From positions 2,790,001 through 2,854,000 of the forward strand of contig JBPQGU010000016.1 in NCBI GenBank assembly GCA_051362555.1: a DNA stretch of 64,000 nt. Direction: 5' to 3'. Both the position numbers and the translations under genes were made by a program. Position 1 is the stretch's first letter; each line of letters opens with the position of its first letter. This document shows, piece by piece, positions 23,606 through 60,277 of the stretch. The notes under the pieces are model-generated. The model saw only the letters and a list, made by a program, of their open reading frames with translations. It did no database searches and was not told the origin of the DNA. Source of the DNA: Lingula anatina (lineage: Eukaryota; Animalia; Brachiopoda).

Positions 23606-23658
<53 letters not shown>

Positions 23659-26441: not shown

Positions 26442-26504
26442 ATTACTAATTAATAAATAAATAAATAAATAAAAATATTAAATTAAAACTAAAATAATAT
26501 TTCT

Positions 26505-29126: not shown

Positions 29127-29135
29127 AAAATATAT

Positions 29136-29504: not shown

Positions 29505-29508
29505 TTTA

Positions 29509-29647
29509 AAATAAAGATACAATGTTTTTTATAAATTTTGCAGAACAAATAGAAAATAGTGAAAATAATATGTTTTTAAATCAAAAAACAATAAATAATT
29601 TTAAAATCATTTTTATAAAAATAATTGAAAATAAAGATTTGAAATAA
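29509..29647 (+). repeat. 139-bp direct repeat, copy 2 (orphan 3' end of an OLD-like gene)
   Basis: Match to 26303-26441, including the stop codon. Confidence 0.9.
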
Positions 29648-29648
29648 T

Positions 29649-30557
29649 TTATTTAAAATCAAAAATTATATAAAAATCAAAAATTTTTGAAATTTCACAA
29701 TTAAGAAAGAATTTGAAATTAATAAATATTTTTTTATAAACATTTTTATTTAATATTTCAATATGATTATTTATTGAAAATATTTTTTCATAAAAAAGTA
29801 AAAATATTTCTTTAATTTCTTTTTCATTTTTATATTCACACATTAAACTTTCTAAATTTAAAATATTTATCAATAAATATTTATCAATATCTTCTTTATT
29901 TTTATGTTTGTCAACTTTTTTTTCAATAGATTTTAAAATATGTTTTAAGAAATTAACTTTTTCCAAGTAAGTTTCAGTTGTTTTTTTAAATTCTAATTTT
30001 ATATTTTTAAAATCTCTATTTTTAATAAGTTGTAAAAATCTTTTTTTATAAAGATTTACATCTGTTAATTCTATAAAAAGATTATCATTAATTTTAAAAT
30101 CAATTTGATTTTGTAAATTACCATCATCATTTAAAATACAATTAATTTTCTTATCATAAAAAGAATTATAAAATTTTTCAAAATCTTTTACTTTTATTTT
30201 TTCAATATTTTTTTTATGACTTTTGTTTTTAGTATTTATTTTTTTATTTTCTATTTTTTTATTTAATAATAAAATAATAAATATTTTATTATTAAAATCT
30301 TTTTTATTAATAGATTTTTTTCAAATACTTTTTATTTCTTTTTCTATTTGTTTTTTATCAATATTAATTTTATTTATTGTTTTATTTAAAAAAAAATTAC
30401 AAAAATCATAAATTAATTTATTTAATTTTTTTTCTTCTAATATTTTTTTAATTTCATCAATATATCTAAAATTTTTATAACCATAATTATATTCAACATA
30501 AAAATTGAATTCAAAATGATTTTTATTTAATATTTGATAATATTTTTCTATTTTCAT
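29649..30557 (-). CDS. Hypothetical protein downstream of OLD-like gene 2
   Basis: Two track ORFs in one frame joined by TGA; about 302 aa. Confidence 0.6.
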
Positions 30558-30573
30558 GATTTTATTTTTTTAA

Positions 30574-32439
30574 TTAAAAATTTTTTATTTTATATATTAT
30601 TTTATCAAATAATTTCTTAAAATTTGAAATTGTTTGATCATTTAATTTTATTTGGTTACTTTCTATTGCTTTTATATAATTAAAAACAAAAGAAACTTTT
30701 TTAATTAATTCTTTATTTATAAGATTTATTTTTTTATTTTGAAATTCTTCATTTACAAATAAATTATAAATATCAGCATTTTCTTGATTTTCTTTTTTTT
30801 CTATTAAAATAGTATTTTCTTTACAAATAATTTTTTTTTCTTTTTTAAAGTATTTTTCAAATGCTTCACCATCATCAAAAATAAATAATGGTTTTTTATC
30901 ATTAAAATTAATAAGTATATCTATTTTTATTTGTGAACTACATATACCTTTCGTAAATACAAAAAATATATTATTCAAAATTAACTTTTCTTCATCATTA
31001 AATTTATCTAATAAAATCTTTTTTATTGTTTTTAAAATCATAAATTCTGAATAACCTTCAACAAAAATTAAATATTTGTTTTTTAAATTATGTGTAAATT
31101 CTTTATCAATTCCAATTTTTGAAAGTATTGGTAATAATCCATCATTTTCATCACGTCTTTTATTATGAGTAAAAATTTCTGAATATATTTGAGAATTATT
31201 ATTTAAATTCTCTATATAATGAATATCTTTTAAATTATCATCATCTATAAAATACGGATTATGTGTTGTAATTAATAAATAAACATTTTTATTTTCTTTT
31301 ATTAAATTTTTAAATTCATCTTTTAATTTTAAAACTAAATTTACATGTAATGATCTATCAGGTTCATCTATTAAAAATAAAAATATTTGATCTTTATTAT
31401 TTATATATAAATTTTCTTTTTCTTTTATAAAATGTATTAAATTACTATATGTTGCATTTCCACTACTTACAAAATTAATTGATAATTCTTTTTTAGAATT
31501 AAAATTATTTTTTAAATAAAAATGAAATCCAAGATGAGTAATTTTTAAATTTATTAAATCTTCTTTTTTTTGTTTATTTAAAAATGAATTAATTTTATTT
31601 TCTATTTCTTTTTTTTCTATTTCAAATCTATAACTTCAACATATATCTGGATCATTAAAATTATTTTTTAATATTTTTAATTCTTCATTTGTAAATATTT
31701 CATTACTTTTTAAAATTTTAAAAATACTACTTTTTGTAAAAACATTAAAACTATAAAATGATTTTAAATTTTTCGAATTATCTTTAAAATTAAAATTAAA
31801 CTTTTCAATTGGTTTTAAAAAATTTATATTTAAATTATGAATAAAAAAATCATAAAAAATATTAACAATATCTTTTCTTCTTATACTTTCATTAAAAAAA
31901 TTTAAACTTCTAAATGAATAATAAAAATATTCTTCTGTAAAATTTTCAAATTTTATTTTTTGTTGTTGACGTTTATAAATTATACTTGGAGTAAATAATT
32001 TAAAAATCTCATTTATTTCAATATTTACAATTGCAAAAAAATTTAATTCATTTTCTGGTTTTATAAAAATAAATAAATTCTTAATTTTATTTTTTTTTAA
32101 TATTTTTAATTTTTCTTCATATTTTTCTTTATCTTTTCCAAATAAAGAAAAATTTTTTAATAAATATTCTAAATCTTGTGTTGTAAAAATAATCACAAAA
32201 AAATTACGATTAGTTATTTCTTTTTCAAAAAAATTAGAAAACATAAATCTGCGTGATATTATGTTTGAATTTGTTTTTATATTATCTAATTCATCATTTT
32301 TTAAATATCTTTCTAATAATTCTAAAAATTGTGTTTTTCCTGATCCATTTAAACCTAAAAATATGTGATTTTGTTTTTCTAAGTTAAAATAAAATTCTGT
32401 ATCAACAAAACAAGATAAATTTTTAATTTTAATAATCAT
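30574..32439 (-). CDS. OLD-family ABC ATPase-TOPRIM protein 2
   Basis: GLNGSGKT, VSSG, LIDEPDRSLH, ITTHNPY, IFVEGYSE, FIFDD. Confidence 0.85.
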
Positions 32440-32443
32440 TTTT

Positions 32444-32938
32444 TTAAATTAATTTTCTAATAGATGATTCAGTATAAATTAAATCATATTTTTTTAATGC
32501 TTTAAAAGCTTCAAAAGATGAATTTGTTCTAAATTGTAATTTAAATTTTGGTTTATTTTCTGTTTTATTATCAATTATGAAAAAATAATATATTTTTTCA
32601 TCTGTAAAAATTATTTTATTAATATTAAATAATGATTTACTACTATAATTTTTAGATATTTTATATGTTGAATTTGAAATATCTTTTGAAAGTGGAAAAT
32701 TAATTTCTTTTGTTTTTATTGATGTTTGAACAACAACAAATAAATCTGAATTTGTTGTTTTTCAAAATCTTGATTTATTATTTATCCCTTTTATTTCATC
32801 AAAAACATTTTTATTTTTTCATCATCAAATTCAAAATACCTTCTCTTCTAATAACTCTAAAACTGTAAATACTTTTAATATTAAAAGTAAAAAAATAGAT
32901 GTAGTACTTAAAATAATACTTATTTCTGAAATTCCCAT
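32444..32938 (-). CDS. Hypothetical protein with an N-terminal membrane anchor
   Basis: Hydrophobic N-terminus and a WIWWW motif; stop codon 4 bp before the OLD-like gene 2 start. Confidence 0.65.
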
Positions 32939-33063: not shown

Positions 33064-35649
33064 TTAATGACCAAATATCAATTGTAAAAATTCATATTTT
33101 TCTCTAATTTTTGCTAATGCTTTTGAAGCAATTTCTGTTAATTTAACTTGTCTATCTACAATTTCAGCATCATCTTGAGTTGAAATTTGACTTAAAAGAT
33201 CATCATTATTATCATCTAAAATATTATCAATCATTGCTTTTTTTTGAACATTATTATAATATGTGGTATCCATTTTAGCTCATTCTGCAATATATTTTCA
33301 ATTAATTTTATTTATTATTGATGCATTAGTTTTAATATCAACAGGTCTATAAAGAGTGTTTGTTCATTGGTAAACTAAATTGTAAATTTTTATTGCAACT
33401 TGAAATAAATCAAAATCTTCAACTTTTTTATTTAATTCTTCATTTTCTTTAAACAATGAAATTTTTTCATCAATTTTTTCTTTTGCTTTTGTTGCTATTA
33501 ATTTTAAATTAGCTCTATCAGCATTAATAATATCAAAAATAGTAGTATCTCATGTTATTATTTGATCAATTAAAGTTTGAATTGCACCAATATAAAATGT
33601 TTCATCTTTTTTAGCTCATTTTGCAATAGATTGTCATTTAGCTTTATTAGCAACAGTTGCAGTATTTAAAGTAGATGTATCAGTAGCATCTTTTCATTGT
33701 TTAGCTAAATCTCAAGCATTTTCTAATACTTGAAAATCATCTTCTCATTTTGCATCATCACCTTTTAGTCCTTGTGGTAATATTCTATTAATTTCTAATT
33801 TAACTGTATTAATTATAGTGTTAAGGTTTATTTTTTCATCATCTTGTAAATCACCAGTTGTTTGTGAAATTAATTTATTAATAAGAACTTTTATAGAATC
33901 ATTTGTATTTGCATTAGTATATATTGATAATGTTTTTGCAAAATCACCAAATTTTTTATAATCTGCTTTGTTTGTATCAGTAATTGTAATATTTTGACTA
34001 GTATCAATTGTATTTACAAATGTTCTAAGATCTACTATTTCATTAAAATAATTTATAGCAGCTGTTTTTATTTGTTCTGGTGTAGCATCATTACCTCTTT
34101 CACCTTGAGGTAATATTCTATTAATTTCTACTTTAATTTTTTCAATTATAATGTTAAATTCCCTTTTGTTCTCAGAATTAGATAAATCTACACCATCTCC
34201 ATCTCTTAATCATTCAGAAATACTTTCTAAATTACTAATATTTTTTATTGATTGTATAGTTAATGCAAATAATCCAACTTTTTTTCATGCATTTTTATTA
34301 TATTCATTAATAACAGTATTATCATCAACAGTATTTATTAATTCTCTAATAGCAACTAAATTACTAATATATTTTAAAACTTGTTCATATACTTTATCAT
34401 CAGTTGCACCTTGTGGTAATATTTTATTAATTTCTGCTTTAACTGTATTAATTATATTTTGTACTTGTAATATTTCATTTTGAAAATTAATATCTTGACC
34501 AGTATAAAATTTATCAACTACAATTCTTGTTGAATCACTTTGTGATGCACCTGTATAAATGGATAATTTTTTAGCAAATTCAGCAAGTTTTTTAAATTCT
34601 AATTTATTTGAATTATCAATAGTAATATCTTCACCAGCATTTAATTTTGTTTGAATAGTATTTATTAATGTTTTAATACTTACTATTTCATTAAAATAAT
34701 TTATAGCAGCTGTTTTTATTTGTTCATCACTTGCAGGAACACCGTCATTACCTCTTAAACCTTGTGGTAATATTTTATTAATTTCTGTTTTAACTGTATT
34801 AATTATAGTTTGAAGATTTGTTTTTTCATCATCTGTTAAATCTCCATTTGTTTGTGCAATTAATTTATCAATAAGAACTTTTACAGTATCATTTTCATTT
34901 GCACTAGTATATATTGATAATTCTTTTGCAAACTCACCAAGTTTTTTATAATTTTCTTTATTTGTATTAGAAATTGTAATAGTTTGACTAGTATCAATTA
35001 TATTTACAAATGTTCTAAGATCTACTATTTCATTAAAATAAGCTATAGCAGCTGTTTTTATTTGTTCTACAGTTGGAGCTGGTCCTTGTTCACCTGTATC
35101 ACCTTTTTCACCTTTAGCACCTGGAGCACCATTTTGTCCTGCTGGTCCTCTAAATCTTGTTCTAGCTGCATCTGTTCCCATGTATGTTGTAACAGCTGAT
35201 TCTACTTGTGCATCAGTTGCATCTTGACCAGCATCACCTGTATCACCTTTTTCACCTTTAGCGCCTGCTGGTCCTGTTGCACCTCTTGGTCCTGTTGGTC
35301 CTCTATCACCTGTGTCACCTTTAACACCTTGGGGTCCTGCTGGTCCTCTATCACCTGTGTCACCTTTAGGTCCTTGTGGTCCTGGTTCACCTTTTGGTCC
35401 TTGTGGTCCAACTTTAGAAGCAGCTTCTTCTATATTTTTTACTGTTTCTTTTGTTGAAGTTTTTGATTCTTCTAAAGATGATATTGATTCTTCTTTTTCT
35501 ACTTTTGATTTATATGAATTATTTACTGATACAACTCCAATCATACCAACTGTTGTACCAATAGCTACAACACCTAAAACTAATAATCCTTTTTCAAATA
35601 TAGATGAAGTTTTAATTTCATCTTTTAATTCACTTAAATATCTTTTCAT
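33064..35649 (-). CDS. Large membrane-anchored collagen-like surface protein with about 105-aa helical repeats
   Basis: N-terminal TM; Gly-X-Y blocks of 21 and 8 triplets; repeats EQIKTAAI...EINKILPQG; 861 aa with TGA=Trp; AGGAG RBS. Confidence 0.9.
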
Positions 35650-36792: not shown

Positions 36793-37743
36793 TTATGGTG
36801 TACGTACAAAATTAGCTACTGTTGTTTGAAGAGAAGTAACTGTTCTGTCAAGATCTGTAACTGTACTTTCAAGACGGTTAATTGTATTTTGTTGATTGCT
36901 AACTGTATTTTTAAGAGTATTTATTTCAGTATTTAAGTTTTCTATTTGTGTTCTCAGTTCTGGAACAGTAACATCTAAAGCTGTTGTTTGTGCTGGTGTT
37001 AAAGTTGCATCAGCACCTGCTGGTCCTGTTGCACCTCTTGGTCCTGCTGGTCCTCTATCACCTGTGTCACCTGTGTCACCTTTGTTTCCTTGTGGTCCTG
37101 CGGGTCCTGCGGGTCCTTGAGGTCCTCTTGGTCCTTCTGGTCCTTGTGGTCCTCTTTCACCTCTTTGTCCTTCTTCTCCAGCAAATCCTCGAATACCTTG
37201 TTCACCTCTGTCACCTTTAGCACCTTTAGGTCCTGCTGGTCCTCTTTCACCTTGGATGCCTTGTGCACCTCTTTCACCTTGTAAACCTGTTGGCCCTCTT
37301 AAACCTTGGATACCTTGTGCACCTCTTTCACCCTGTTGTCCTTTTTGTCCTACTGGTCCTCTTTCACCTGGATCACCTTTAGGTCCTTGTGGTCCTACTG
37401 GTCCTCTTTCACCTCTTGGTCCGGGTGGTCCATGTGGTCCTTCTGGTCCAGTATCACCTTTTTCGCCTTTGTCACCTTTTTCACCTTTAGGACCTTGTTG
37501 TCGATCTTTAGAAGCAGCTTCTTCTATATTTTTTACTGTTTCTTTTGTTGAAATTTTTGATTCTTCTAAAGATGATATTGATTCTTCTTTTTCTGTTTTT
37601 GATTTTTCAGAATTATTTACTGATACAACACCAATCATAGCAGCTGTTGTACCAATAGCAACAACACCTAAAACTAACAACCCTTTTTGTAGTAAAGAAG
37701 CTGTTTTAATTTCATCTTTTAATTCTTTAAAATAATTATTCAT
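36793..37743 (-). CDS. Membrane-anchored collagen-like protein with a C-terminal coiled coil
   Basis: N-terminal TM; 54 uninterrupted Gly-X-Y triplets; heptad-rich tail. Confidence 0.92.
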
Positions 37744-42447: not shown

Positions 42448-44421
42448 TTATTTTTGGTTTTTAAACTTTAATTCAAAAATAATATCTCTTATTTTTGCAG
42501 CTAATTCAAAATCCATTTTTTTTACAGCTTTATGCATTTTTTTATTTAATAATTTAATTGTTTTTACTATTTCTTCTTTATTTATTTTTTTAATTTTTTT
42601 ATTTTCAATTTTTTTATATAAATTTTTAATATCATCTTCTAAAAATATATCTTCAATTGGTTTTTGAATTGTTTTAGGAATAATATTATATTCTTTATTA
42701 TATTTAATTTGTATTTTTCTTCTTTCATTTGTTTCATCAATTGTTTCTTTTATATCTTTTGTTAATTTATCAAAATACATTATTACTTTTCCATCTTTAT
42801 TTCTACTTGCTCTACCAACAATTTGAATTAAAGATCTTCTGCTTCTTAAAAAACCAATTTTATCTGCATCTAAAATTACAACTAACATTATTTCTGGAAT
42901 ATCAAGTCCTTCTCTTAATAAATTAATACCAACAACAACATCAAAAATTCCTTTTCTTAAATTAATTAATGTTTTAACTCTTTCAAATGTTTTTAAATTA
43001 CTATGTATATATGCAACTTTAAAATTATTTTCTTGTAAATGTTTTGTTAAATCTTCAGCCATTTTAATTGTTAAAGTTAAAACAAAAACTCTTCCATTTT
43101 TTTTAATTACTTTTTTAATTTGATCTTTTAAATCATCAAATTGATTTTTTGTACTTTTACAAAAAATTTCAGGATCTAAAAGACCAGTTGGTCTTATAAT
43201 TTGTTTTACAACTTGAATATCTTTTAAATTCATTTCATAATCACCTGGAGTTGCAGATAAAAATATTACATTTTTCATTCTATTTTCAAATTCATTAAAA
43301 TTTAATGGTCTGTTTGCAAATGCAGATTCTAATCTAAATCCATAATCAATTAAATTTTTCTTTCTTGAATAATTTGCAAAATACATACCTTTAATTTGTG
43401 GAATTGTAATATGTGATTCATCAATAATTAAAAGAAAATCATCTCCAAAAAAATCTAAAAGCGTATATGGTTCATCATTTATTTTTCTTTTATCAAAATA
43501 CATTGAATAATTTTCTATTCCCTTACATGTATTTATTTCTTTCATCATTTCTAAATCATTTAAAACTCTTTTTTCAATTCTATATGCTTCAACTAATTTA
43601 TTGTTTTTCTTAAAAAATTTTATTCTTTCAATTAATTCATCTTTAATTAAACTTAATGTTTCATTAATTGTTTTATTTTCAACAATATATTCCATTCCAG
43701 GAAAAATTTTATATTCTTTATATTCTTTTAAAATTTTAAAATTTAAAGAATCTAATTCTTTAATTCATATTATTTTTGAATTTAATAAATTAATTTGTAA
43801 TATTTTATTTTCATCACTATTATTTATTGTAATAAAATTTCCCTTAACCATAAAATTAGAAAATTCTAATATATAATCATTCCTTTTATATCCAGATTTA
43901 ATTAATTTACTTAATAATTCATCTTTTGTTATTTTTTGATTTTGTTTTAATGTAAAAATAAATGATTTATATTCAAATGGATTTGTAACACCAAAAATAG
44001 ATGCAACAGATGAAACAATAATTGTACTTTCATTTGATGATAATGCATTTAAAGCATTTAATCTCATTTCTTTTATATCAAAATTTCATTTAACAGATTT
44101 ATCAATATAAATATCGCTATTTGGTAAATATGATTCAGGTCTATAAAAATCAAATGGAGAAATAAAATATTTAACTTTATTTTTTGGAAAAAAAGTTTTT
44201 AATTCTGAATATAATTGCATTGAAAGTGTTTTATTATGACAAATAATTAATGTATTTTTATTTAATTTTTCAATTATATTTGCAACAGTAAATGTTTTAC
44301 CTGTACCAGTTGAACCATATAAAATATTTTTTGTTTTATTATTTAAAATATTATTTGTTATTGTTTCAATTGAATTATTTTGATCACCTTTTGGTTTGAA
44401 TTTAGAAATTAATTTAAACAT
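42448..44421 (-). CDS. uvrB: Excinuclease ABC subunit B
   Basis: GSTGTGKT, IDESH, SATPG, GINLLREGLDIPE, C-terminal UVR domain. Confidence 0.97.
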
Positions 44422-44489
44422 TTTTTTTTAATACTTTGACATAATTATAAACATTAATTTCTATTAAATCTAAAAAACAAAATTAAATT

Positions 44490-46070
44490 TTATTTTTTAG
44501 ATTTTCAAAAGAAAAAAATACTTAATAAAAAATTTAAAATTATTGTAATATATGTAATAATTTTTTCATAAGTAAAAAAATTTGGTTCAATTTTTACATT
44601 AAAATTTAATTGTTTTTCCACTCATTCTTTTGTTTTTATTGAAGTATTAGAAAAAATATAATAATCTAATTCAAATAATTTAAAAAAACCATAAATTAAT
44701 AAAAAAATTAAAATAGGTAATACTAAAAAATTTAAAATTTTTCTTAATCAATCAAATTTAGTTGTTTTTATATAACTAAATTTTTCATTATAATGTAATA
44801 TTTTTTTATAATCTTTATAATTTATAAGTACAAATATTTCATAACAGCCAATCAATAATATAAATTGATTAATTCAAACATCTTGTACATCAACCATTTT
44901 CTTTTGATTTAAAAATATAAAAAACAAATAATGTATTAATGCTCAAAAAGATCAAAATAAAAGACCTTTTTTTCTAGTTGTTTTTTTAAAAAAATAAACA
45001 TTTGAATCAACAAAAACTTCTATTGCAAATAAAATAGATGAAAAAGATGCAAATAACAAACTTATTATTAAAAATACAAACAAAATATGTCCTAAAATTT
45101 TTGATTGCATATTATAAAATAATTTAGGCAATTCAATAAAAATTATTGATGAACCACCAGCTGTTTCTTTTTTAAAAAATAAATCTAATTTATTTAAAAT
45201 TTCTTTTTCAGATAAATAAATAGAAAAATCATTTACAACAATTGTAGTAATCAAAATACAACTTAAAATAGCAACAAAGGTATCAATAAAAATCATAAAT
45301 AATATATCATTAGTTTTATCTTTTTTTATATTTGAATTTTTACTTAAAACAAAATGGATGCCATAAAAAATTGCAGTTGAAAACATAGCTTGAATAGTAG
45401 CTTTTTTTCAAACATTAAAATTTATAAAAGATTTTGTATCAAATTTAAATAATTTTATAATTGCATACTTAGAATTTTTTTGTAATAGACCATAAATTGT
45501 TAAAAAAATTAATAATAAAAATAAAATAGGAACTAAAATTTTATTTGTTTTTTCCAAACCTTTTTTAATACCTAAAGAAATGATAAAAAAAATTAAAAAT
45601 AATAAAATTATAAATCCTATTAATGTTAAATATGAAAAATTAAAAATATTTTCATTACTTGGTAACTGTAAAATGTTTTTTTCAAAAAAATTACTATTTA
45701 ATGCTCAATTTTTAAAATTATATTTACTAAAAGAAAAAAACATACTAATAAAAATTCAAGAAATAATTACTAAATAATAAATACATGAAAATAATGAAAA
45801 TATAACTTGTATTCAACCAAATAAAAATCCTCTATTTTTATCAACTTTAAAAAAACATACAATAACATTTTTTTTAAAAAATAAACCATATTGAAATTCC
45901 AATAATATTATTGGAAAAACAATTAAAAACAAAACAATAATATAAATTAAAATAAATGATGAACCACCAGAAGTTATAACTTCTTTTGGAAACCTTCAAA
46001 TACTACCTAATCCTATAAGTGCACCAACACTTGATATTAAAAAACCAAATCTTGAAAATTTATTTTTCAT
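44490..46070 (-). CDS. NSS/SNF-family sodium-dependent transporter 1 (divergent)
   Basis: FSRFGFLISSVGALIGLGSIWRFP...GGSSFILIY; GLEKTNKILVP. Confidence 0.88.
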
Positions 46071-46093
46071 TTTATTATTAATAAATTTTAAAT

Positions 46094-47296
46094 TTAAATA
46101 AAATTCAATACTTCTCTTAAAATCATTTCTTCTTCATCTGTTTTAATTATTAAAATTTGAATTTTTGATTCTGGTTTTGTTAAATAAAAATAATTACTTT
46201 TACTATCTTTTTTTAACATAATTCAATTTTTATTTAAATCAAAATTTAAAAGAAAAAGTCTTTTTAAAATACTTTTAACTATATAAGAACTGTTTTGTCC
46301 TATTCCTCCAGTAAAAACTAAATATTTTAATTTACCTTCTAAATCATTTGTATATTGAACAATATAATTTGCAACTGCTTTTGAATATAAATCTAATGAT
46401 AATTTTGCTCTTTTATTTCCATTATTTGAAGCTTTTTCAATATCTCTAATATCTGATGAAATACCTGAAACAGCTAATAATCCTGATTTATTATTTAAAA
46501 TTTTTAATATATCATCTAAACTTAAATTTGTTTTAGAATTAATATATTTAAATATCATTGGATCAACTTTGCCACAACGTGTTGACATAATAAATCCAGA
46601 AATTGCACTAAAATCAAATGTATTATTTACACTTATACTATCTTTTATTTCTGAAATACTTGAACCATTTCCTAAATGACAAACAATAGCATTAATTTTT
46701 TCACTTTTACATTTTGAAATATTTTTTAATTCATTTAAAACATATTGATAACTTATTCCATGAAAACCATATTTTTGAACTCCATATTCTTCATATCATT
46801 TTCATGGTAATGGTAAAACTTTATTAATTAATGGTATATTTTTATGAAATGATGTATCAAAAACTAAAATATTTTTTATATTTTTTATATTTTTTTTTGT
46901 AGCTTTTAATACTTTTAAACTAGCATCTATATGTAATGGTGCTAATGGAATTAATTTTTTTAAATCACAAATAATTTGTTCATTTAATAAACAAGAATCT
47001 AAATATTTTCTTCCTCCATGAACAATTCTGTGTCCTACTGCTTTAATATCATTAAATTTTTTTATAATTTTATTTTCTTTTAATAAAGTAAAAAGAAAAT
47101 TAATTGCAATTTCATGATTATAAAACTTTTTATAAATTATTTTTTTTGTATTTTTAAAATAAAAAATACAATTACCATCAATACCTATTTTTTCTAAAAG
47201 TCCATTACAAACAACATAAAATTTATCATCTTTTAGATGATAAAGTTTAAATTTTATTGAACTTGAACCTGCATTTAAAATTAAAATTAATTTCAT
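46094..47296 (-). CDS. ackA: Acetate kinase
   Basis: NAGSSS, GHRIVHGG, FDTSFH, YGFHG, HLGNG, TRCG, FTGGIG, TDEE. Confidence 0.95.
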
Positions 47297-47319
47297 TTTT
47301 CTTACTCCACATATTAAAA

Positions 47320-48027
47320 TTATTGATAAATATCTAATATATTTTTATTTAAAAATATATTAATAAAAACTTTATATACAACAAATGTATTAAAAAATAA
47401 AAATGGAATAGATTTTAATCTTACTAAAATTTGTTGTAAAAAGTCAAGGTTTAATTTGATTTTTAACTCTAATGGTGTTATTAATAAATAAAAAAAATAA
47501 TTTAAAAAAAATAAAGAAAAAATTATAAAAAATATTAAAAAATTATAATTTTTTAAATAAATAAAAAAAATATAAAAAAATATAAAAAATAACAAATAAA
47601 TCATTGAAATAAAAATAAAAATATAATTAAAATTTGAAATTATAAAATTATTTTTTTTATAAAAATAATTTATAAAAAATAATATAGATAAAAATATTAA
47701 AAGATAAACTAATATATAAAAAATAACAAATAAAAATTTTTTAATATTTTTTTTATAATAAATAAAACATTTAAATAAACAACCAATTAAAATCATAAAT
47801 AATCTTTGAAAAACAATTATTGAAATACCCAATCCACGTCATCAAAAACTAATATCAACAACTATTCCAACTAATAAACCATAAAATGGACCTAATAAAA
47901 AACCAGATATAAAAAATAATATATTTTCAACTTTAAAATAAATCAAAACATGTATTAAAACAATAAAAAAAGAAGACAAAATAATTTTCTTTAATTTTTT
48001 GTTAATAAAAAATCTATAATTTAGCAT
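47320..48027 (-). CDS. Membrane protein resembling an ECF transporter S component
   Basis: ISGFLLGPFYGLLVGIVVDI fits the S-component G-x-x-x-GP-x-x-G...D pattern; about 6 TM. Confidence 0.65.
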
Positions 48028-48033
48028 AAAAAT

Positions 48034-48708
48034 TTAAAGTTTTATTAAAAGAAAAATGAACAAAAATACTAACAAAGAAATCATAAACACTTTTGATAGA
48101 ATTTTTAATTTTGCTTCTTTTAAATTTACCTCATAATCAATAAATGGTTTTGGATTAATATTTTTTTTAATAATTTTATTAATACTTTTTTTAAAAACTA
48201 AATCTAACAAATTACAAATATTAAAGTCATTTAATATATTTTTTTTACAATATTTAATTTTTAATTCATCTGCAAATTCTAAAATAGAAATTGCAGATGA
48301 ACTTGAAAATGCTAATCTTAAAAGAAAAAAAGAATCTATTAATTTAAAATTAAAAATTTTTATTTTATAAAACTTACATTTTTTATATAAAAAATTATAA
48401 AAAAATCTAATTTGATTTCCTATAATTAAATAATCTTTACAAAAATTTAAAATAAAATTATAAGCATTTTTAAAATCTAATTCTTGAGATTTTTCAATAT
48501 TAAAAATACCTTGTTTTTTATATTCTGTTACATCATAAGAGTTTTCTAATTTAAAATCTATTTTTTTATAAATAATTTCATTATTATTTATTTTTTTAAA
48601 ATATATTCTATAAATTTCTGAACTAGATAAAACTCTAAAATCAACTATAATATATTTTTTAATGTTTTTTTCTTGTTTTATTTTATTTAAAATTTTTAAA
48701 TAATTCAT
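48034..48708 (-). CDS. Degenerate DEDDh/DnaQ-like exonuclease-fold protein with a C-terminal TM
   Basis: YIIVDFR, IIGNQIRFFYNFL and KLIDSF echo the Exo motifs, but most catalytic residues are missing. Confidence 0.55.
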   Translation of the reverse strand: MNYLKILNKIKQEKNIKKYIIVDFRVLSSSEIYRIYFKKINNNEIIYKKIDFKLENSYDVTEYKKQGIFNIEKSQELDFKNAYNFILNFCKDYLIIGNQIRFFYNFLYKKCKFYKIKIFNFKLIDSFFLLRLAFSSSSAISILEFADELKIKYCKKNILNDFNICNLLDLVFKKSINKIIKKNINPKPFIDYEVNLKEAKLKILSKVFMISLLVFLFIFLLIKL

Positions 48709-48731
48709 ATCATTTAAATTAAAAAATAAAT

Positions 48732-50510
48732 TTAATTACTTAATTTTTTTACAATATCAATCAAAATATCTTGCATTGTATTTTTGTATTTTAAAAGATC
48801 TTTTGCATATTTTTTTCAAGATGTAAAAAATGCAATAATTTTATTTTCTTTTATTGAATATGCAATTGTAAATCCATCATTTTGAACAGGTCAAAATACA
48901 AATGATGTAAGTGTTTTATAACTCATATTTGAAGTTGACATTCTTTGTTTTGTAAAAAGTTTATAAAAATCTGTATCTATAATTGGTAAAACATTATGAT
49001 CATTATTTTTAAATTCTTTATTTTGTAACTTTAAAGCTAATAAATGTCTTTCAATACCACTTCCATTTTTACAATCTAAAACTTTTTTATAATGACTATT
49101 TTCAACATCTTTTAAATATTTTAAAATTTCATCTTTATTTTTAAATTTAATATTAAAATATTTATTATAAAACTTTATTATTGCATTTGATAATGGTCTT
49201 AAACATTCAGTTCTACCCATAAAAAATTTTCTTAAATCAACTGATTCATATGTTGAATAAAAATTATTAAATACTTTTTTTTGTGCTAATTGACCACATA
49301 ATTGAAAAAAACCATCTATAGATTTAATACCAATTTTTTTTAATTTATCTTTTCCAAAATCAATAATAAAATGTTCAAAAGCACATTCATTACATTTTTT
49401 TTTATAATTGATAAAATGTTTTTCTAATATTTTTTCTTCTTCTTTTAATAATTTAAAATCTAATAATTTAAAATCTAATAATTTATCATTTTTTGAATTA
49501 TTTTTTAAATTATTTAACATTGTATCCATATAATTTAACAAATATAAAAGTGTTCCACCATCAAAATATGTATGTTCCATAGTAATTGGACAATGTATTG
49601 TATTGTTTATACCAATATTTAAAGATTTGGAAAATCATCTATTCAAATTATTTTTTGAATCACCATTATAAGTTTTTTTAACTGCATCAAATTCATTTTC
49701 AACCTTTTGTGTATCAAAACAAAAAACAAAAATAGATTCTTTTAATTTTTTAATTAATTCAAAATTTCTTTTAAATATTTTTCTTTGTAATAAATAATCT
49801 TTTTTTCTATTTTTAGATAATTCAATATAATTTAATTTTGTTATATTTTTATCTTTAAAATTTTTAATTATTTCTCTTATTGTTTTTTCAATTGATTTTA
49901 TTGAACTTACTTTGTTATTTTTAATAATTTCTAAATTATAAAAAGCATTTTTATATGCAAAAATAATATTTGTTGATAAATCATCATTAATAATATATTT
50001 ATCAATTTTTTTTCCCATTATTCTATAACTTGCAAGCAATCCATGTAATTGATCTAATGAAATTTTATTATTTTTAATTTCAAAAAATTCAAATTTTTTA
50101 GGATTTTTTTTAAAATCTAAATAAAATTTTGAAATTGATCAAATAATAAAAGCAGATTTTTCAAAAATATCCATATTCTTTATTTTTTCATTACCTCAAC
50201 ATATTCCAGCACCAACAGATAAAACAGAATCATTAATATTTAAATACAAATCTCATCAATAATTTATTAAATAACTACTATTTTTATTTTCAAATTTTTT
50301 TAATAAATATTTTTGTGATTTTTTTATATAAGAAGAGTTCTTAAATTTTAATATTTCAGATTCTAAAATTTTTAAATCCAAATTATTTACTTTAAAAAAT
50401 GGAGTTAATCATTCTAATACTCTTTTAGATGTAACATCTAATGTTGGAACAGGTAAATTAGGTATTTTATTTTTATTTAATATTTTTTTTGAATATAAAA
50501 TGTTTGACAT
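48732..50510 (-). CDS. Choline/carnitine O-acyltransferase family protein, carnitine-type signature
   Basis: LPNLPVPTL, catalytic EHTYFDG, TYESVDLRKFFMGRTE, GIERHL, MSTSN; 592 aa. Confidence 0.93.
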
Positions 50511-50514
50511 AATA

Positions 50515-51495
50515 TTAATCAAATGTTTGGCTTAAAGTTATCAATGCAGTATTGAAAACCTCATCTTCATTTGCTCCTCTTGAAAGATCATTTACTGGTA
50601 AATTTAAACCATAAAGTATTGGTCCTATTGATTTACAATTACAAAAATGTTGTGCAATTTTATATCCAATATTTGCAGAATTTAAATCTGGAAATATAAA
50701 AATATTAGCAGATTTTTTAAATGTTTCTATATTATTAAATTTTTTATTTCTAATATTTTCATCAAATGCTGCATCAAATTGTATTTCACCTATAATTTTT
50801 ACATTCAAATCATTTATTTTATTTTTTAAAATTTCTGTTGCATCTTTAACTTTTTTTGTATGTTCATTTAATCCACCACTTCAATTTGTAGAAAAAGATA
50901 ACATTGCAACTTTTTTTTCATCATTATTAATTTTTTTTGAAAAATTAATTGTATTCATTGCAATATCTGCTAATTGTTTTGAATTTGGTTCAATATTTAA
51001 TGCACAATCTGCAAAAAAATAAACATTTTCATCTTTTATCATTATCATAGTACTACTTGAAAAATCAATATTTTCTTTAGTTTTAATAATTTTAAATGCT
51101 GGTATTAAAATATCTTTTGTAGAATAATTAATACCACCTAACAAACAATCTGCATATCCTTTTTTAAGTAAAATCATTGAAAAATAATTTGTTTTTCTTA
51201 CTAATTCTTTTATAATTTTTTTAGATATTTTATTTTTTGTATAAGAAATTAGTAATTCTTCCATTTCTTCAAATTCTTTCAATAAAATATTATTTAATAC
51301 AATTTTTTCAATATCTTTATTTAAATTATTAGGAATTTCATTTTCATTTTCAAAAACTAAAATACATTTTGATAAATTTAAATTTGTAATTCTATTTGCA
51401 ACATTTTGAATAATAATATTTTTTCCTTCTGGAAATAAAATCTTTTTTTTCTTATTTTCTTTTATTTTTTTAATAATTTTTTCAATAAAGTCCAT
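50515..51495 (-). CDS. pta: Phosphate acetyltransferase
   Basis: LFPEG, FADCALN, GEIQFDAA, FPDLNSANIGYK, PVNDLSRG; AAGGAG RBS. Confidence 0.96.
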
Positions 51496-51537
51496 TGTTT
51501 GACTCCTTTATTAAATTCTTTTTAATTTTTAATTAAA

Positions 51538-53694
51538 TTAAAATTTTTTTAAATATTCTTTATAATTAACAAGCTTACAAATAATTTTTTTAGAATCTGT
51601 TTTTTCATAATATAAAACAAGTTTTTTTGATTTTGCTAATTTTAAAGCTTCTTCTTTACTCATTTTTCCTAAAAACTTACCTTTTTCATCAATTACTTCA
51701 AAAGTAGAAAATGGTATATCATCATTAAACATTTTTATAATTTTACTTTTTTTATATTTATGTTTTAAATAAAATAATAAAATTGATAAAAATATTAATT
51801 TTACAATTAATATTCAAGCAAAAATAAGTTCTAAATCAGTTTTTATTTTTTTAGATGTAATATATTTTTCACCCACTTTACCTCAATAAATACCTTCACT
51901 AAAAGTACCTTTAAATATTAAAATTAAAAATATTATTGTTATTAAAATTCATAAAGAAATAAATACAAATTTATATTTTAAATGTTTTGAATTTTTACTT
52001 TCAAAAACATATTCTTTTTTCTTAATATTATTTTTTATATTTAAAAAATTATCTTTATTAAAATCTTTTCTATTTTGAATAATAGATTTAAACATTGCAA
52101 TTATTTGTAAATAAATAATCAACAAATATGGTGCACCCATAAATACTGCAAAATCTCTAATTGCTATCATAATCTTTGAACTATCACCACCAATTAATTT
52201 ATATGCAATTGCTAATAATGTAATTGAAATACCTCATATAAAAATTGAAATTCTTCATGGTTTTTCTTCACCTTTTTTTGAAACAATTGATGCAACAGAA
52301 ATTGAAGCTGATGTTCCAGTTGTAGCAACAAAAGTTACAAAAACAATTAATGAAATAACAGATAAAATTTTAAAAAATGGAAACTTAGATAATAATTTAA
52401 AAAATGCACCATTTACTGAATAAGTTTTAGCAACAATATTATAAACATCTGAATCACCATTAAATAAATTAAAAAATGAAAAACCACCAAAAACACTAAA
52501 TCATAAAGCCATAAATACTGCAGGAACAATTACACTTGCAAGACAAAATTGTCTAAAAGTTCTACCCTTTGAAATACGTGCTAAAAACACACCCATAAAT
52601 GGTGTTCATGATATTCATCATAAAATATATGCACTTGGTCAATCATTCAATCACTTTGATCATGATGTATCTAATGGATAAGAATTAAAATGTCTTGTAA
52701 TTGAACTTGGTAAGCTTCCAATTGATTCAATAGATTGATTAATAAAAAACTTTGTTGGTCCTACTAAAAAAATAAATGCAAAAATAACTAATGCAATATA
52801 TATTGTAATATTTCCTAATTTTGCCATCCCTTTCTTTAATGGAGTTATACTTGCAATTATAAAAACAAATGCAATTATAGCAATAAATATTAAAGAAGTT
52901 GCTTTAATTCATTTTGGATCAATTTTTCCATCAAAAAATGCAATACTTAATGATTCTGTCATATTTCCACCAGCAATTGCAACTGATGCTGCAACTGTAA
53001 AAACTGCTGTTATACCAGCTAAACAATTTGCAAATATTCCAATATATCTAAATATTTTAGATTTTCCAAATCCTTTTTCTATAACAGAACCAGGTTGAAA
53101 TGTTGCATTATATTTTTTGTTAAAAACAAATCAAGCAATTACTAATCCAGAAATAGTATATATGCACATTGCAGGTATACCTCAATCTCAAACTGAAAGA
53201 GAAATTGATTCTTTTATTGCATTACTAGCATTACTAATTTGATCAGAATTTAATCCACTTATTCCACTTTTTATTACTGGTGCTAATTTTTCTTTTAATG
53301 GTGAAAATTCAACATGAAATATTGGTTCTGCAACACCAAATGTTAAAGTACCAACACCAACACCAGCTGTAAACAACATAGTTAATCAAGTAAATGTTGA
53401 ATATTCTGGTTTTGTATCACCAATTCGTTTACTTCCATATTTAGTGAAAATAAAAAAACAAATAATTATCAAAAATATAAATGGTGTAATTAAAAAAAAT
53501 CAAGTAAATTTCTCAGATACAAATGTTTTACTTTTACTAATAGTTTTTGCAAATGTATCTGGAATACTAATTGCAATAGCAGATAAAAGTAAAATAAAAA
53601 ATGAAGATATAAAAAATCCTCAACTATTATTTTTTAAAAAAAGAGAAATACTTTTTTTATTTTTAATACTATTTATTATTAAAAATTTTTTCAT
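51538..53694 (-). CDS. BCCT-family (betaine/carnitine/choline) transporter fused to two extra TMs and a C-terminal IF3-N-like domain
   Basis: [46 protein letters not shown]; no TAA/TAG in frame between 52170 and 51540; 718 aa. Confidence 0.9.
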
Positions 53695-53728
53695 AAATTT
53701 AAACCTTTCTCTTTTTTATTTTGTTTTT

Positions 53729-53763
53729 TTTTTTTTTTTTTCAAGTACTTTTTTAAAAAAATA
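53729..53763 (-). promoter_or_regulatory. Upstream element (AAGTACTTG + poly-A) shared with the pyrG upstream region
   Basis: Matches 61965-62000; the A tract is 18 nt here and 13 nt there. Confidence 0.55.
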
Positions 53764-53880
53764 AAAAAATCTCTTATTATAAAGAAATAAAATAAATATA
53801 AAAATGAAAAAATTATAAAAAAAAAGTTCTTACAAAAATGTACGAACTTTTAAAAAGTTTTTTTTAAATTTATAAATAAA

Positions 53881-55557
53881 CTAAAAAATACTTATTTTTG
53901 AATCTGGATTTGAAATATTTATTAAAGCACCAAATACAATTAAAACTAAACATATAATAAATAATATAATTAATAATTTATAAATTGATTTTAAAAATTT
54001 AACATAACTTATTTTACAAAATGATGTTGAAACCATTACTGCAGCATATGTTGGAGCAAATAAATTTCCTAAACCAATTCCCATTGTATATGCAGTTATT
54101 GAACCTGCTAAACAATGATTTTGAGTTATTCCTTCTGCTTTTTCAATTTCATAAATTGAAGGACCTAAAAGTGGAAAAATAGCTTTTGCTAATCCAGATG
54201 TAGATGGAATAAGTAATGAAACTGGAATTGTAAGTATATATATCAAAATTGGAACTGTAAATCTTTTATCACCAGAGCTTTTTTTTACATTATCAATAAT
54301 TCCATTAATAAACAAATATTTTAAATTTGTTGCTTCAAACAAAACAGAAATACCACTTGCAAATCCAATACATAAAACAGCTGGAATCATTTTCTTACAA
54401 CCAGTTGTAAAGTTTTCTACAACATCATCTCAAGAAAATCTTGCAATTTTTGCAATAATTACAGTACAAAACAAAAATCAAACTGATAATGCAGTTAAAT
54501 TTCAAGAACCAAATTGAAATTTTGAACCATTTTTCATTCTTGAATTTACACCAGAATTGTTAAATCAAGAAGTTGATGGATTATTATTAAAAGTAACATT
54601 TTCAACAGTTTGAAATGTATTAGTTTGTGCAATCTTATCATATGGAATAACTAAAAATAACATTAAAACAAATGAAAAAATAAAAACTAGTGTTATTATT
54701 AAATTTCTTTTTATATTACCACTTACCTTTTCCATAGATTCAACATCAAATTCACTTTTATAATATTCAAATTTATCTTTAAAATATGAATTTGATTTAT
54801 TTTTTTTAACTCTATATGAATAAATCATTACACATAAACATGCAGTAATAAACATAACAATTCATATAACTCATCTTCAAGCCATACCATCAGATATTGA
54901 GATATTTTCTTTTAAATTTGAATAACTTTCAATAGATGAATTTGATATATCAGTTGCAATTATTGTTGCAAATGGATTTACTGTTGAACCAATAACACCA
55001 GAACCAGCACCAATAAAAACAACTAAAAATGAACTTCAAATATCAAAACCGGCTGCTAAAAATACTGGAACAACAAATGCATACAATGGTAATGAAGATG
55101 TTCCCATACCATTAAATGTTCCATTTAAACTTAAAAACAACATAATTGGTATAACAACTCATGTTGTTTTAAACATATTTTTACATTCTATTCATATTTT
55201 TTTTATAAAATTTGTTTCAAAATTTCTTTCTATTTCTAAATTAAATTTAATTTTTTTTAGAAAATTTAAAACAATTGAATTCATTGCTTTTGTTTTTATT
55301 GTTACAAACATAAATGAACCAAAAATAAACAAAAAAACAGAAATACCTACTGAATTATAAAGACCAACTGGAATTGTTGATATCCATTGTAAAATACCAG
55401 CACCATAAATATTTATTTTTTCATTTTTTTCATTTGTGGTTGTTACATTTTGTCAAGATAATATTAAACTTAAAATACCAAAAAAACAAATTCCAATAAA
55501 CAATAATATTAATGTATTTGGTAGTTTAAACCTTCTTTTTTTTAATAAACTTTTCAT
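53881..55557 (-). CDS. YfcC/ArcD-family transporter, second paralogue
   Basis: FKLPNTL start, AGSGVIGSTVNPF, IPSTSGLA; AAAGGAG RBS. Confidence 0.9.
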
Positions 55558-55587
55558 ATTCTCCTTTCTTATTTTTAAAAAAAAATT

Positions 55588-55619
55588 AAAAGAGCAAAAA
55601 AATATTTTTTTGCTCTTTT
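55588..55619. terminator. Palindromic hairpin between gatB and the YfcC paralogue
   Basis: AAAAGAGCAAAAAAA-TA-TTTTTTTGCTCTTTT. Confidence 0.75.
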
Positions 55620-55675
55620 CTTTATTAAAATATTTTAATTTTTAATATATTTTAATTTTTAATATATTTTATTTT

Positions 55676-56566
55676 TTAATATATTTTATTTTTTTTAATA
55701 AATTTTTTATTATTATAAACTATTTCTTCAGGAATTTCAATTGGTAAAATATTTGTTTCAGGAATAAAATAATAATCTTCTTCAACATTTTTTTTTGTTA
55801 AAATAATTATTTTTTTTGATTTTTGATCATATTTTTTAATTATTAAAAGATTAAAAATTCCTCTTTTTAAATATTCTTTTTGATCTTCATATTCTAAATT
55901 AATAAAATGTAAAATATCTTCTATTTTATTTAAATGTTTAATATAAATAGTATTTTTTGATTTTAAATCATTTGTAAAAAAATCTAATTTTATTGAAATT
56001 TTTATATTTTTATCTAAAAAATCAGATTTAATAATTTTAGCTTTTTTTAATTTTAAAATAAAATCATTTAAAAAATATTTAATATCAATTGGATAATCAA
56101 AATCTGATTTTGTAACTATTTTAATTATTGCAATACCTGATCTATTATAATCAACATACAAACTATCATCCAAAAATTTAGAATCTGCAACATCTTCTTC
56201 TAAAACAATTGAATCAATATTTATTTCTTTTTCTTCTTTATTTTCTTTTAAAAATTTAAAATTACCACCAATTGCAAATGGTTTCAAATATTGTGTAATT
56301 TTAAAACCTTTTGGTAAATCATGATAAAAATAATTTTTTCTATCAAAATATAATTTTTTACTAATTTTTGAATTTAATAAAAGTGCTAATCTAACTGCTA
56401 ATTCAACAGCTTTTTTATTTAAAGTTGGCATTGAACCTGGTATTCCAATGTCATCAATACTTACATTTTCATTATATTTTGAATTAATGTTATTTTTTGA
56501 TGTTGAAAATAATTTTGTTTTAACATCCATTTGTATATTTAATTTTAATCCGATTTTAACTTTCAT
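55676..56566 (-). CDS. gatB: Truncated, degenerate GatB (N-terminal domain only)
   Basis: FDRKNYFYHDLPKG, LEED and DYNRSG recognisable; 296 aa; GLEVH replaced by GLKLN. Confidence 0.85.
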   Translation of the reverse strand: MKVKIGLKLNIQMDVKTKLFSTSKNNINSKYNENVSIDDIGIPGSMPTLNKKAVELAVRLALLLNSKISKKLYFDRKNYFYHDLPKGFKITQYLKPFAIGGNFKFLKENKEEKEINIDSIVLEEDVADSKFLDDSLYVDYNRSGIAIIKIVTKSDFDYPIDIKYFLNDFILKLKKAKIIKSDFLDKNIKISIKLDFFTNDLKSKNTIYIKHLNKIEDILHFINLEYEDQKEYLKRGIFNLLIIKKYDQKSKKIIILTKKNVEEDYYFIPETNILPIEIPEEIVYNNKKFIKKNKIY

Positions 56567-58600: not shown

Positions 58601-60277
58601 TTATTCTTCGATATTTTCAATATGATATTTCTTTTTATATCAAAGAATTGAAACTGTTCAAACAATAATTGGTATTCAAAACATCAATGTTAAAACTACT
58701 CATTGAGTTGTTGAAACTTCAGATAATTTGCTACCATTATATTCAGAAATTGTTGAATATAAACTTGAACAACATACAAACAAAATTGCAAAAAATGAAC
58801 AAACTATCAAACCATAAAACAAATTCTTATTTCATTTAATTTTTGCTTTCTTGTTGTTAAATTCTATAATTTCATTACATGATTTTCTGTTTGTTGCAAA
58901 CATAAGCGCTTGTTGTAATGATAAAAATAGTAGTAATCACATCATTCATCCATCAATTGTTAAGGTATACATTGCATCAACATTTGAATTAAATACAAAA
59001 AATATACCAAAGAAGAATTGAATTAAAATTGTAACTAATGATCCATATTTTCTTTGCATTCCAGTGTTTTCATATAAAACACTTGTTCCTGTTTCAACCT
59101 CTCCAATTAATGATGATAAACCAGCAAAAACTGCTGATAAAAAGAAAAATGCACCTAAAATGTTTCCTATAATTTTAACATTCATTCTTTCACCAATTCC
59201 TTTAAAGAAAACAGGAAAAGTTTTAAAAATTAGTTTTGAACCACCAATATCTTTGTCATATATTTTTCCATCTGTTTCAAATATTGCAAAACTTTTTCAA
59301 TCTTCTACTACTCTTGAAACACCACTTTCAAATACATCATTTTCATTATGTGTTTTTAAAACAGTACCAAGTTTATATTCTTTTTCACCAATTTGCAAAC
59401 CACTTTTCATCATTCCTCCAATTGTTGCAGCAATAATGAAACCACCTAATAATGCAATTAATGTGTCACCACAAACAATTATAAATGCTTGTGTTGTGTT
59501 ATCTCTTTCTTTGGGAGCTTTTGATGAATAAATCATAATAATAGCTGAAACCAAAGATAAAGAAAATATTGATTTTCCAAATGCAGAACCTCAAGCTTTA
59601 AAATCACTTAATTTTGTTAAATCTGGTTTAAAAACTGCTTCAATTCCTAAATCATATCCATCAATTGTAAATGAATATACAAAAAAAGCAATTAATAATA
59701 AAAACAGAATAGGAATCATAATTTTACATGCTAATTCAACACCTTTTTTAATTCCTCTGTTAACAATTATTCATAATGATACAAAAACAACAAGAACAAC
59801 AAATAATGTTCAAAAAGATGCACCACCATGTGACATGTTTGTTGGATCCACATTTTTTATTTCTTTTCCTGTTATATTTAAAACATTTTGATCCATAAAT
59901 TTAAAATTATTACCAAATTCTGATGAAAATGAACTAAAAAACATTATTAATATTCAAGCTACAACTCAAACATAATATGTACCAATAATAAATTGACCTA
60001 TTGCTTGCACTAAACCAAATGCAGGTCCTGTTCTTTTTCAATATTTTTTATATGCAATTACTGGAGAAGTTCTCCATTTATTTCCAAGTGTTGATTCCAA
60101 TACAAAAAATGGAATACCTAACACAAATAAAGAAATAACATATGGTATTAAAAATGCCACCCCACCATATGAAATTAATGATGTAGGAAATAATCATAAA
60201 TTCCCTAAACCTACAGCAGAACCAAGTGTTGCAAGTATAAAACCAACATTAGAAAAATTTTTGGATTTACTTTTCAT
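58601..60277 (-). CDS. NSS/SNF-family sodium-dependent transporter 2
   Basis: GFILATLGSAVGLGNLWLFP...GGVAFLIPY; FAGLSS. Confidence 0.93.

Follow-up and report, generated by a model that had tools for sequence, protein, structure and literature searches.

We analysed a 64,000-nucleotide stretch of DNA (positions 2,790,001 to 2,854,000 of contig JBPQGU010000016.1 in the Lingula anatina assembly GCA_051362555.1; hereafter the window, meaning this whole 64-kb stretch) and found on its minus strand a locus in which genes for a BCCT transporter (51538–53694), a phosphate acetyltransferase (pta, 50515–51495), a PF00755 acyltransferase (48732–50510) and an acetate/propionate kinase (ackA, 46094–47296) lie together. 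The four products would make up a redox-neutral route from acetylcarnitine to ATP that yields one ATP per molecule, and we consider this the probable function of the locus. Host acetylcarnitine would be imported through the BCCT protein, its acetyl group would be moved from carnitine to CoA by the PF00755 enzyme, Pta would convert acetyl-CoA to acetyl-phosphate, and AckA would use acetyl-phosphate and ADP to form ATP and acetate. Acetate is predicted to leave the cell, and carnitine would leave as well, perhaps, more speculatively, in exchange for acetylcarnitine through the BCCT protein. The conversion of acetyl-CoA to acetate and ATP by Pta and AckA is established. An acetylcarnitine-to-ATP interpretation had been put forward in a preliminary description of this DNA and is supported, on a comparative basis, by recurrent linkage of the genes in other genomes and by carnitine-type residues in the acyltransferase.

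The PF00755 profile covers the acyltransferase from end to end (1–573 of 574, E 5.7e-89), and its AlphaFold2 model (pLDDT 91) has the full two-domain fold of carnitine acetyltransferase (CrAT; TM 0.85–0.86). The motifs EHTYFDG, which carries the catalytic EHxxxDG, GRTEC and GIERHL were all found in the sequence, as had been described. Residues were read from alignments to solved CrAT structures and from a 158-sequence alignment, and are numbered here on the 596-aa form that starts at TTG 50522. H317, D321, K391, K395, D403, Y425, E426 and S427 correspond to CrAT H343, E347, K419, K423, D430, Y452, E453 and S454, where the pairwise alignments place K395 with a gap of one residue; T438, R492, S529-T-S531, F541, F543 and V546 correspond to T465, R518, S552-T-S554, M564, F566 and V569, and W90 and Y93 occupy the positions of CrAT Trp102 and Tyr107. 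We take the carboxylate site of CrAT to consist of Tyr452, Ser454, Thr465 and Arg518 and its aromatic site of Trp102, Tyr107 and Phe566. The carboxylate-site Tyr, Ser, Thr and Arg positions and the STS motif are kept in the window enzyme. So are the catalytic His, the CoA-binding Lys419 and Lys423 and the Asp430/Glu453 pair, roles that are assigned in the available part of one CrAT study (PMC11852590).

M564 of CrAT is replaced by Gly in a mutant that was solved with hexanoylcarnitine, and because the bulky F541 occupies this position in the window enzyme, we infer a short acyl pocket; this suggests that the protein is a short-chain carnitine acyltransferase. In the C-terminal domain CrAT gave the highest score (56.5 bits), followed by CPT2 (42.6), CrOT (40.9) and choline acetyltransferase (ChAT; 35.0). 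ChAT presumably has VDN and Asn in place of the T-D/E-T and Arg of the carnitine enzymes, where the window enzyme has TEC and R492. These residues favour carnitine over choline, in agreement with the earlier assignment of carnitine-type determinants. The closest homologue (P0018) is 43% identical, and in a tree of 96 enzymes, from which partial sequences and, of the 150 representatives, most of those ranked below 30 were left out, the window acyltransferase pairs only with P0018.

The BCCT protein (718 aa; PF02028, E 4e-100) consists of a core (residues 27–538), a hydrophobic extension and an IF3_N-like C-terminal tail (657–715). Its GVGVG, the glycine motif of transmembrane helix 3, and WWISW, the Trp box, align to BetP, while Gly is found where choline transporters have Asp, and the TSADS motif has another residue in place of its Asp. 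It scored under every NCBIfam cut-off for the characterised subtypes (279 of 650 bits for BetP/OpuD, 225 of 695 for BetT and 174 of 541 for CaiT), and its best solved relatives were trimethylamine (TMA) and choline transporters. Among the matches listed in an unbiased homologue search, the best was P0156 (53% identity), which also has the hydrophobic extension, and the second was a Bacillus massiliigorillae BCCT that itself adjoins a PF00755 gene. P0156 and the acyltransferase homologue P0018 share sources and were taken to come from one relative. In a tree of 64 sequences (14 from the loci and the window, and 50 of the 120 listed matches), the window BCCT, P0156 and the B. massiliigorillae protein fell in one distinct clade (support 1.0), whose other seven members with known context all adjoin a PF00755 gene; about twenty more are sequences without genomic context. 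A PF00755 enzyme is also the partner of a second, unrelated clade of BCCT proteins (L003, L007, L025 and L034). The window BCCT is a predicted acylcarnitine importer.

These features also bear on the possibility that the substrate is another quaternary-ammonium ester, such as acetylcholine or the ester of a hydroxylated betaine, put to the same ATP-yielding use. The window transporter belongs to an uncharacterised clade with TMA and choline transporters as nearest solved proteins, the acyltransferase fold resembles ChAT as closely as CrAT, and clostridial and Sporosarcina members of the enzyme family stand beside dehydratase or enolase-superfamily genes that hint at other substrates. Against this, the enzyme retains the carboxylate-site residues T438, R492, Y425 and S427, its C-terminal domain fits CrAT better than ChAT by 21 bits, and the BCCT has Gly at the choline-transporter Asp position, so we regard such a substrate as unlikely. 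The IF3_N-like tail of the BCCT, which the preliminary description did not mention, is in frame (51538–51730; PF05198, E 5e-11) and is missing from P0156; G023 has an intact infC after its PF00755 gene. It may be a real fusion, a remnant or an assembly artefact.

Pta (326 aa; PF01515, E 2e-91) scored above the PRK09653 cut-off and just below that of TIGR00651 (304.8 vs 311.2), and is 48% and 38% identical to the Pta of two relatives. AckA (400 aa; PF00871, E 5e-117) scored 406.9 bits for TIGR00016, whose cut-off is 293.4.

The GC content of the window is 12–28% in 2-kb bins and its long open reading frames (ORFs) require TGA to be read as Trp, from which its source was taken to be a mollicute. 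Its RpoC has one match at 75% identity, followed by ten at 54–57%, and the best match from a named organism is 46% identical. The window DNA is present in six sequencing-run entries from three studies under one organism label, and no RNA run was among these entries. The same label also includes polyA RNA libraries, which fits a eukaryote-associated bacterium. A single-sequence scan of genome contigs found nothing.

We then examined how the linkage recurs in other genomes. In our sample of the Mycoplasmatales, the order to which Mycoplasma collis belongs, 8 of 401 genomes had a PF00755 gene and none of 400 had a BCCT gene (one was unscored), yet in the window these two families, both rare in the order, lie only two genes apart. 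All eight PF00755 genes cluster with one family of MFS transporters, and ptb, buk or ackA is found within two genes of PF00755 in four of the loci, with the orders enzyme-ptb-buk-MFS (G284), enzyme-ptb-MFS-buk (G086), enzyme-MFS-ackA (G002) and, at a contig end, a split enzyme-ptb-MFS (G380). Butyrate kinase occurred in only 3 of 298 genomes of the order, two of them with the gene beside PF00755; in the third (G192) it is preceded by genes for an amino-acid dehydrogenase and a 2-oxoacid:ferredoxin oxidoreductase, which form its own source of acyl-CoA. The linked kinase was the sole PF00871 match in the genomes of G284 and G086, in neither of which was a clear pyruvate dehydrogenase (PDH) E1 found. 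The G192 region (L108:1943–8203), with the dehydrogenase, the oxidoreductase subunits, ptb and buk, is in itself a set of branched-chain amino-acid fermentation genes that is rare in Mycoplasmatales.

Among eight loci from named genomes, four had an adjacent BCCT gene and two an adjacent MFS gene. B. massiliigorillae has the order BCCT-PF00755-ptb-buk-MFS, ptb-buk lies directly downstream in L004 and L006, an ackA split by a stop lies two genes on in L005, and L002 has none of BCCT, MFS, ptb-buk or ackA. Also outside the mollicutes, on metagenome contigs, the orders buk-ptb-PF00755-BCCT-BCCT (L026) and BCCT-PF00755-ptb (L027) belong to a different branch of the enzyme tree, and each of the two main bacterial branches contains members linked to acyl-phosphate genes. 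Of 88 metagenome loci, the best 80 were sampled, among them many near-duplicates and 36 loci with full flanks. In this sample a BCCT or Opu-type ABC gene was found within 2.5 kb of PF00755 in 38 (22 of the 36), and a gamma-butyrobetaine dioxygenase-like gene (395 bits, under the cut-off of 414.75) in 3 (3 of the 36); acyl-phosphate genes were confined to L026, L027, L033 and L089. The transporter and dioxygenase neighbours speak for the proposed class of substrate. In the phylum of G005, an alignment search of 401 genomes found PF00755 in the centre genome only. From these neighbourhood counts and the tree, the link to a transporter is general, and that to the ATP-forming enzymes belongs to a minority yet recurs in separate branches with two enzyme sets. 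The recurrent module thus varies in its transporter (BCCT or MFS) and in its enzymes (pta/ackA or ptb/buk), and the ptb/buk versions in other bacteria would run the same route with C3–C5 acylcarnitines.

Conservation of the linkage, which the preliminary description had left as a check, was found in Mycoplasmatales, Bacillus and metagenome contigs, where transporter, PF00755 enzyme and phosphotransacylase or kinase recur together. It bears directly on the alternative that the window genes are chance neighbours, a horizontally gained BCCT-acyltransferase pair lodged in a housekeeping pta-ackA locus and uncoupled from it. The nearest relatives do carry pta-ackA with neither BCCT nor acyltransferase, two unrelated genes are interposed in the window, and tight spacing is general there. 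Since pta sits between the BCCT and acyltransferase genes, and other lineages have arrived at this partnership, some with ptb/buk and some with ackA, we find chance adjacency improbable.

Besides these, we observed two other arrangements. In L040 (5725–11915), L041 and L084, PF00755 and the gamma-butyrobetaine dioxygenase-like gene are divergently oriented, and PF00755 converges on an Opu-type ABC transporter. In a clostridial branch (L001, L007, L025, L034, and L003), the order is sigma-54 activator, altronate/galactarate-dehydratase-like gene, PF00755 and BCCT, and Sporosarcina has an enolase-superfamily gene in place of the dehydratase-like gene. The enzymes of the clostridial branch and Sporosarcina have His for Tyr107 and STT-type motifs, which suggests a different substrate or an additional reaction of carnitine.

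The direction of flux was considered from the five genomes of the nearest family, which are about 55% identical in RpoC. Neither PF00755 nor BCCT was found in these five genomes, where the controls of the PF00755 search likewise gave no matches. G039 has the order nox-tdh-kbl-SNF-pta-ackA (L105:8108–15825), G019 has ackA-pta-nox-tdh-kbl (L106:7337–14183) and G048 has SNF-ackA; arginine deiminase is present in four of the five. Enolase and PDH E1 were not found in G039 and G019, for which genome completeness was not given. Since the relatives have pta-ackA or SNF without BCCT and acyltransferase, pta, ackA and SNF would form an older locus of the lineage, and the BCCT and acyltransferase genes would be a later addition. 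The main argument for a catabolic direction in the window is that pta-ackA of this lineage tends to sit with a supplier of acetyl-CoA, which is threonine cleavage by tdh-kbl in G039 and G019 and would be the BCCT-acyltransferase pair in the window; it is drawn from relatives at this distance and not from the window's own genome. As an observation in its own right, the nox-tdh-kbl and pta-ackA genes of G039 and G019 lie near a type III pantothenate kinase gene in genomes where neither enolase nor PDH was found, and likely provide a route from threonine to glycine, acetate and ATP in mollicutes presumed to rely on arginine.

Each of the three enzyme steps is reversible and, judged by their equilibrium constants, the three together would lie near equilibrium, and flux would therefore depend on the host acetylcarnitine level and on the removal of acetate and carnitine. 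The reversibility of CrAT-type acyl transfer is also stated in the accessible text of PMC11852590. In reverse, acetate and ATP would be consumed and the acetyl group placed on imported carnitine, choline or a host-active amine; acetylcholine, made as a host signal, would be one such product. Such a role would accord with this established reversibility and with the listing of the family among host mimics in the part of PMC5359739 that was available. It would, however, cost ATP in a lineage where two relatives yielded no glycolysis or PDH, the residues are carnitine-type, and the model and the sequence, to which no predictor was applied, displayed no separate export feature; we therefore hold reverse flux to be very improbable.

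A fourth possibility retains the chemistry but not its purpose: the pair of transporter and enzyme would furnish biosynthesis or protein acetylation with acetyl- or acyl-CoA and acyl-phosphate, or would buffer free CoA, and ATP gain would be incidental. Most loci do retain only transporter and enzyme, a type III pantothenate kinase gene adjoins the PF00755 enzyme in L005, and, in the portion of PMC3293634 at hand, loss of Mpn114 or Mpn027 in Mycoplasma pneumoniae lowered overall lysine acetylation. On the other hand, phosphotransacylase and kinase were recruited repeatedly and in two enzyme flavours, the kinase is required only for ATP formation or for activation of free acid, and the relatives keep another catabolic source of acetyl-CoA at their pta-ackA locus. 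We thus consider a supply or buffering role rather unlikely, though it is the alternative to which we give most weight.

Several observations weigh against the ATP-yielding route. The fold match of the acyltransferase is equal for CrAT and ChAT (TM 0.84–0.86 for both), and the fold score was accordingly rejected as a discriminator between carnitine and choline. Residue 541 is A, G or C with ptb/buk in L018, L019 and L004, all of one branch, but the correspondence with the partner kinase fails in L026 and L027 (F with ptb) and in L005 (S with ackA), and these three loci led us to reject the residue as a predictor of that kinase. The association of the BCCT clade with PF00755 is partly circular, because the contexts were mostly reached via PF00755 loci. 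The AckA pocket motif is TFDFSAISGFIMSTR where relatives have MGLTP-x-x-G-x-MMGTR; four related AckA proteins keep MG-x-(T/N)P, from all of which the window AckA diverges, and in alignments to these four and to solved acetate kinases it has Q for a conserved E. This divergence may be due to drift or decay, or may signal a different acyl specificity. Both Pta and AckA are likely to be housekeeping copies, and other sources of acetyl-CoA may exist in the genome beyond the 64-kb window. Four of the eight Mycoplasmatales loci (G001, G023, G161 and G335) consist of MFS and enzyme only, and 76 of the 80 metagenome loci (35 of the 36 with full flanks) have no pta, ptb, ackA or buk within 2.5 kb. Short gaps are common in the window, where spacing does not discriminate an operon, and two unrelated-looking genes, orf224 and orf235, intervene between acyltransferase and ackA. 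Finally, the case as a whole is comparative, and activity, expression and transport are predictions.

The gene layout was examined in full. Six minus-strand ORFs (translation table 4) follow one another in the order BCCT, pta, acyltransferase, orf224 (48034–48708), orf235 (47320–48027) and ackA. ATG 50510 gives the acyltransferase 592 aa and a start in agreement with that of its closest homologue; with this start the gaps come to 42, 4, 23, 6 and 23 bp, as had been reported for six co-oriented genes with gaps of 4–42 bp. The run extends past ackA to an SNF (NSS) sodium-dependent transporter gene (44490–46070, minus strand; PF00209, E 6e-30), 23 bp further on, and then to uvrB, uvrA and uvrC. 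Across the window 24 of the 40 co-oriented gaps are of 50 bp or less, and tight spacing was rejected as proof of a dedicated operon. A terminator scan of 44000–56000 gave three sites, none of them between any of the six genes and one a weak 5-pair hairpin within the BCCT gene, in line with the earlier remark that no obvious internal terminator is present. The promoter scan was uninformative, with fewer promoter-like sites than in shuffles (111 vs 139.6), and the Rfam scan gave three tRNAs only and no riboswitch at the locus. Co-transcription of the six genes is plausible.

Neither interposed gene had a Pfam or NCBIfam match, in the case of orf235 with Pfam examined up to E 1, and neither gave a match when used as a query in the five related genomes or in the other loci searched. 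The product of orf224 had been called exonuclease-like, and language-model features (0.92 to the PF00929, or RNase_T, clusters; a lead only) do suggest a DEDDh/RNase T-like fold, although no family profile matched; the first motif of the protein is degenerate and its C-terminus hydrophobic. The suggestion that orf235, which encodes a hydrophobic membrane protein, is an ECF S component found no family support and was rejected. Both genes are probably passengers. Within the candidate operon, the BCCT, acyltransferase and acyl-phosphate core recurs elsewhere, but the full set of six is not conserved as a unit. The SNF genes of G039 and G048 are nearer to a second SNF gene of the window (58601–60277) than to that at 44490–46070.

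We compared the locus with known systems. The window enzyme resembles CrAT (EC 2.3.1.7; PDB 1ndb, 1nm8 and 2h3p) in fold, catalytic His, CoA- and carnitine-site residues and the bulky residue at position 564, but it is bacterial, only ∼21% identical, has Trp for Gly567 and lies beside transporter and acyl-phosphate genes, and its proposed use is ATP gain rather than CoA buffering. According to the consulted part of PMC13631058, a BCCT of Acinetobacter baumannii imports short- and medium-chain acylcarnitines that are then hydrolysed with release of carnitine, and Pseudomonas aeruginosa has the acylcarnitine hydrolase HocS. Like these, the proposed route would begin with BCCT uptake of a short-chain acylcarnitine, draw first on the acyl group and set carnitine free. 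The A. baumannii acylcarnitine hydrolase (ACH) and HocS, however, hydrolyse the ester, so that the free acid needs re-activation, whereas the window enzyme is a predicted transferase, which would retain the bond energy, in a locus without carnitine-degrading genes. With pta-ackA and ptb-buk modules fed by an acyl-CoA source, the locus has in common the final two steps and the clustering with a supplier (tdh-kbl in G039 and G019; the dehydrogenase and 2-oxoacid oxidoreductase in G192), but its supplier would be a carnitine acyltransferase with no redox step. The likeness to the arginine deiminase pathway (arcA, argF and an antiporter; 16244–21645 in the window) is one of logic only, in that a host metabolite enters and a high-energy phosphate gives one ATP with no redox step, and no enzyme family is shared. 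The locus would, by this comparison of sequences, be a new entry into acyl-phosphate ATP synthesis from known families with a conserved core.

Mpn114 of M. pneumoniae presumably belongs to the same bacterial PF00755 branch and follows a permease gene. Together with nfa31870 of Nocardia, it is listed as a carnitine acyltransferase-like host mimic in the text available of PMC5359739. It is alike in this respect, but in the available parts of PMC3293634 and PMC12689956 it is treated as a protein lysine N-acetyltransferase. The Oceanoplasmataceae, non-fermentative marine mollicutes, are described in the part of PMC11535214 at hand as living on arginine alone, and carry ackA and threonine dehydrogenase. 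The resemblance is by description only, and lies in the arginine deiminase genes of the window and of four of the five relatives and in the two searched relatives where enolase was not found. Carnitine is not mentioned in the accessible part of PMC13599016. Our literature search, with most subscription papers and supplements outside its reach, found no transferase-based acylcarnitine-to-ATP route and no assay for the bacterial PF00755 enzyme family.

Other features were also detected in the window. Two copies of ornithine carbamoyltransferase flank arcA in the arginine deiminase cluster, which includes a YfcC/DcuC-family antiporter, and no carbamate kinase was found among the 30 window ORFs scanned. 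A second YfcC-like gene (53881–55557) lies just upstream of the BCCT gene. The gatB gene (55676–56566) encodes only 296 aa with the GatB_N catalytic domain alone, and is followed by a 14-pair hairpin (55588–55619). Two proteins with collagen triple-helix repeats are encoded at 33064–35649 and 36793–37743, the larger of which has an N-terminal hydrophobic segment and then repeated helical blocks. The region 21856–32938, with a GC content of 12–19%, looks like a defence island: it encodes a Dam-type methylase, a DpnII-like endonuclease and two AAA_15 ATPases whose partners carry no annotation.

If the proposed route is true, transfer in place of hydrolysis, by which published bacterial acylcarnitine use proceeds in the available text of PMC13631058, would keep the ester energy and be a new substrate-level source of ATP for symbionts with reduced genomes, among them some that are believed to subsist on arginine only (available part of PMC11535214). 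It would give a testable function to the bacterial PF00755 family, including Mpn114 of a model minimal organism, with B. massiliigorillae as a culturable carrier of the whole module and the uncharacterised BCCT clade as candidate acylcarnitine carriers. A wider proposal, which we judge to be evenly balanced between true and false, is that host acylcarnitines are an energy currency for scattered host-associated bacteria, in which a mobile module of transporter and acyltransferase would plug into pta/ackA for acetyl or ptb/buk for C3–C5 groups to provide ATP without a redox step. It would then be a main ATP source of non-glycolytic mollicutes and the real role of Mpn114 in M. pneumoniae, where the effect of this protein on lysine acetylation would arise via the pool of acetyl-CoA and acetyl-phosphate.

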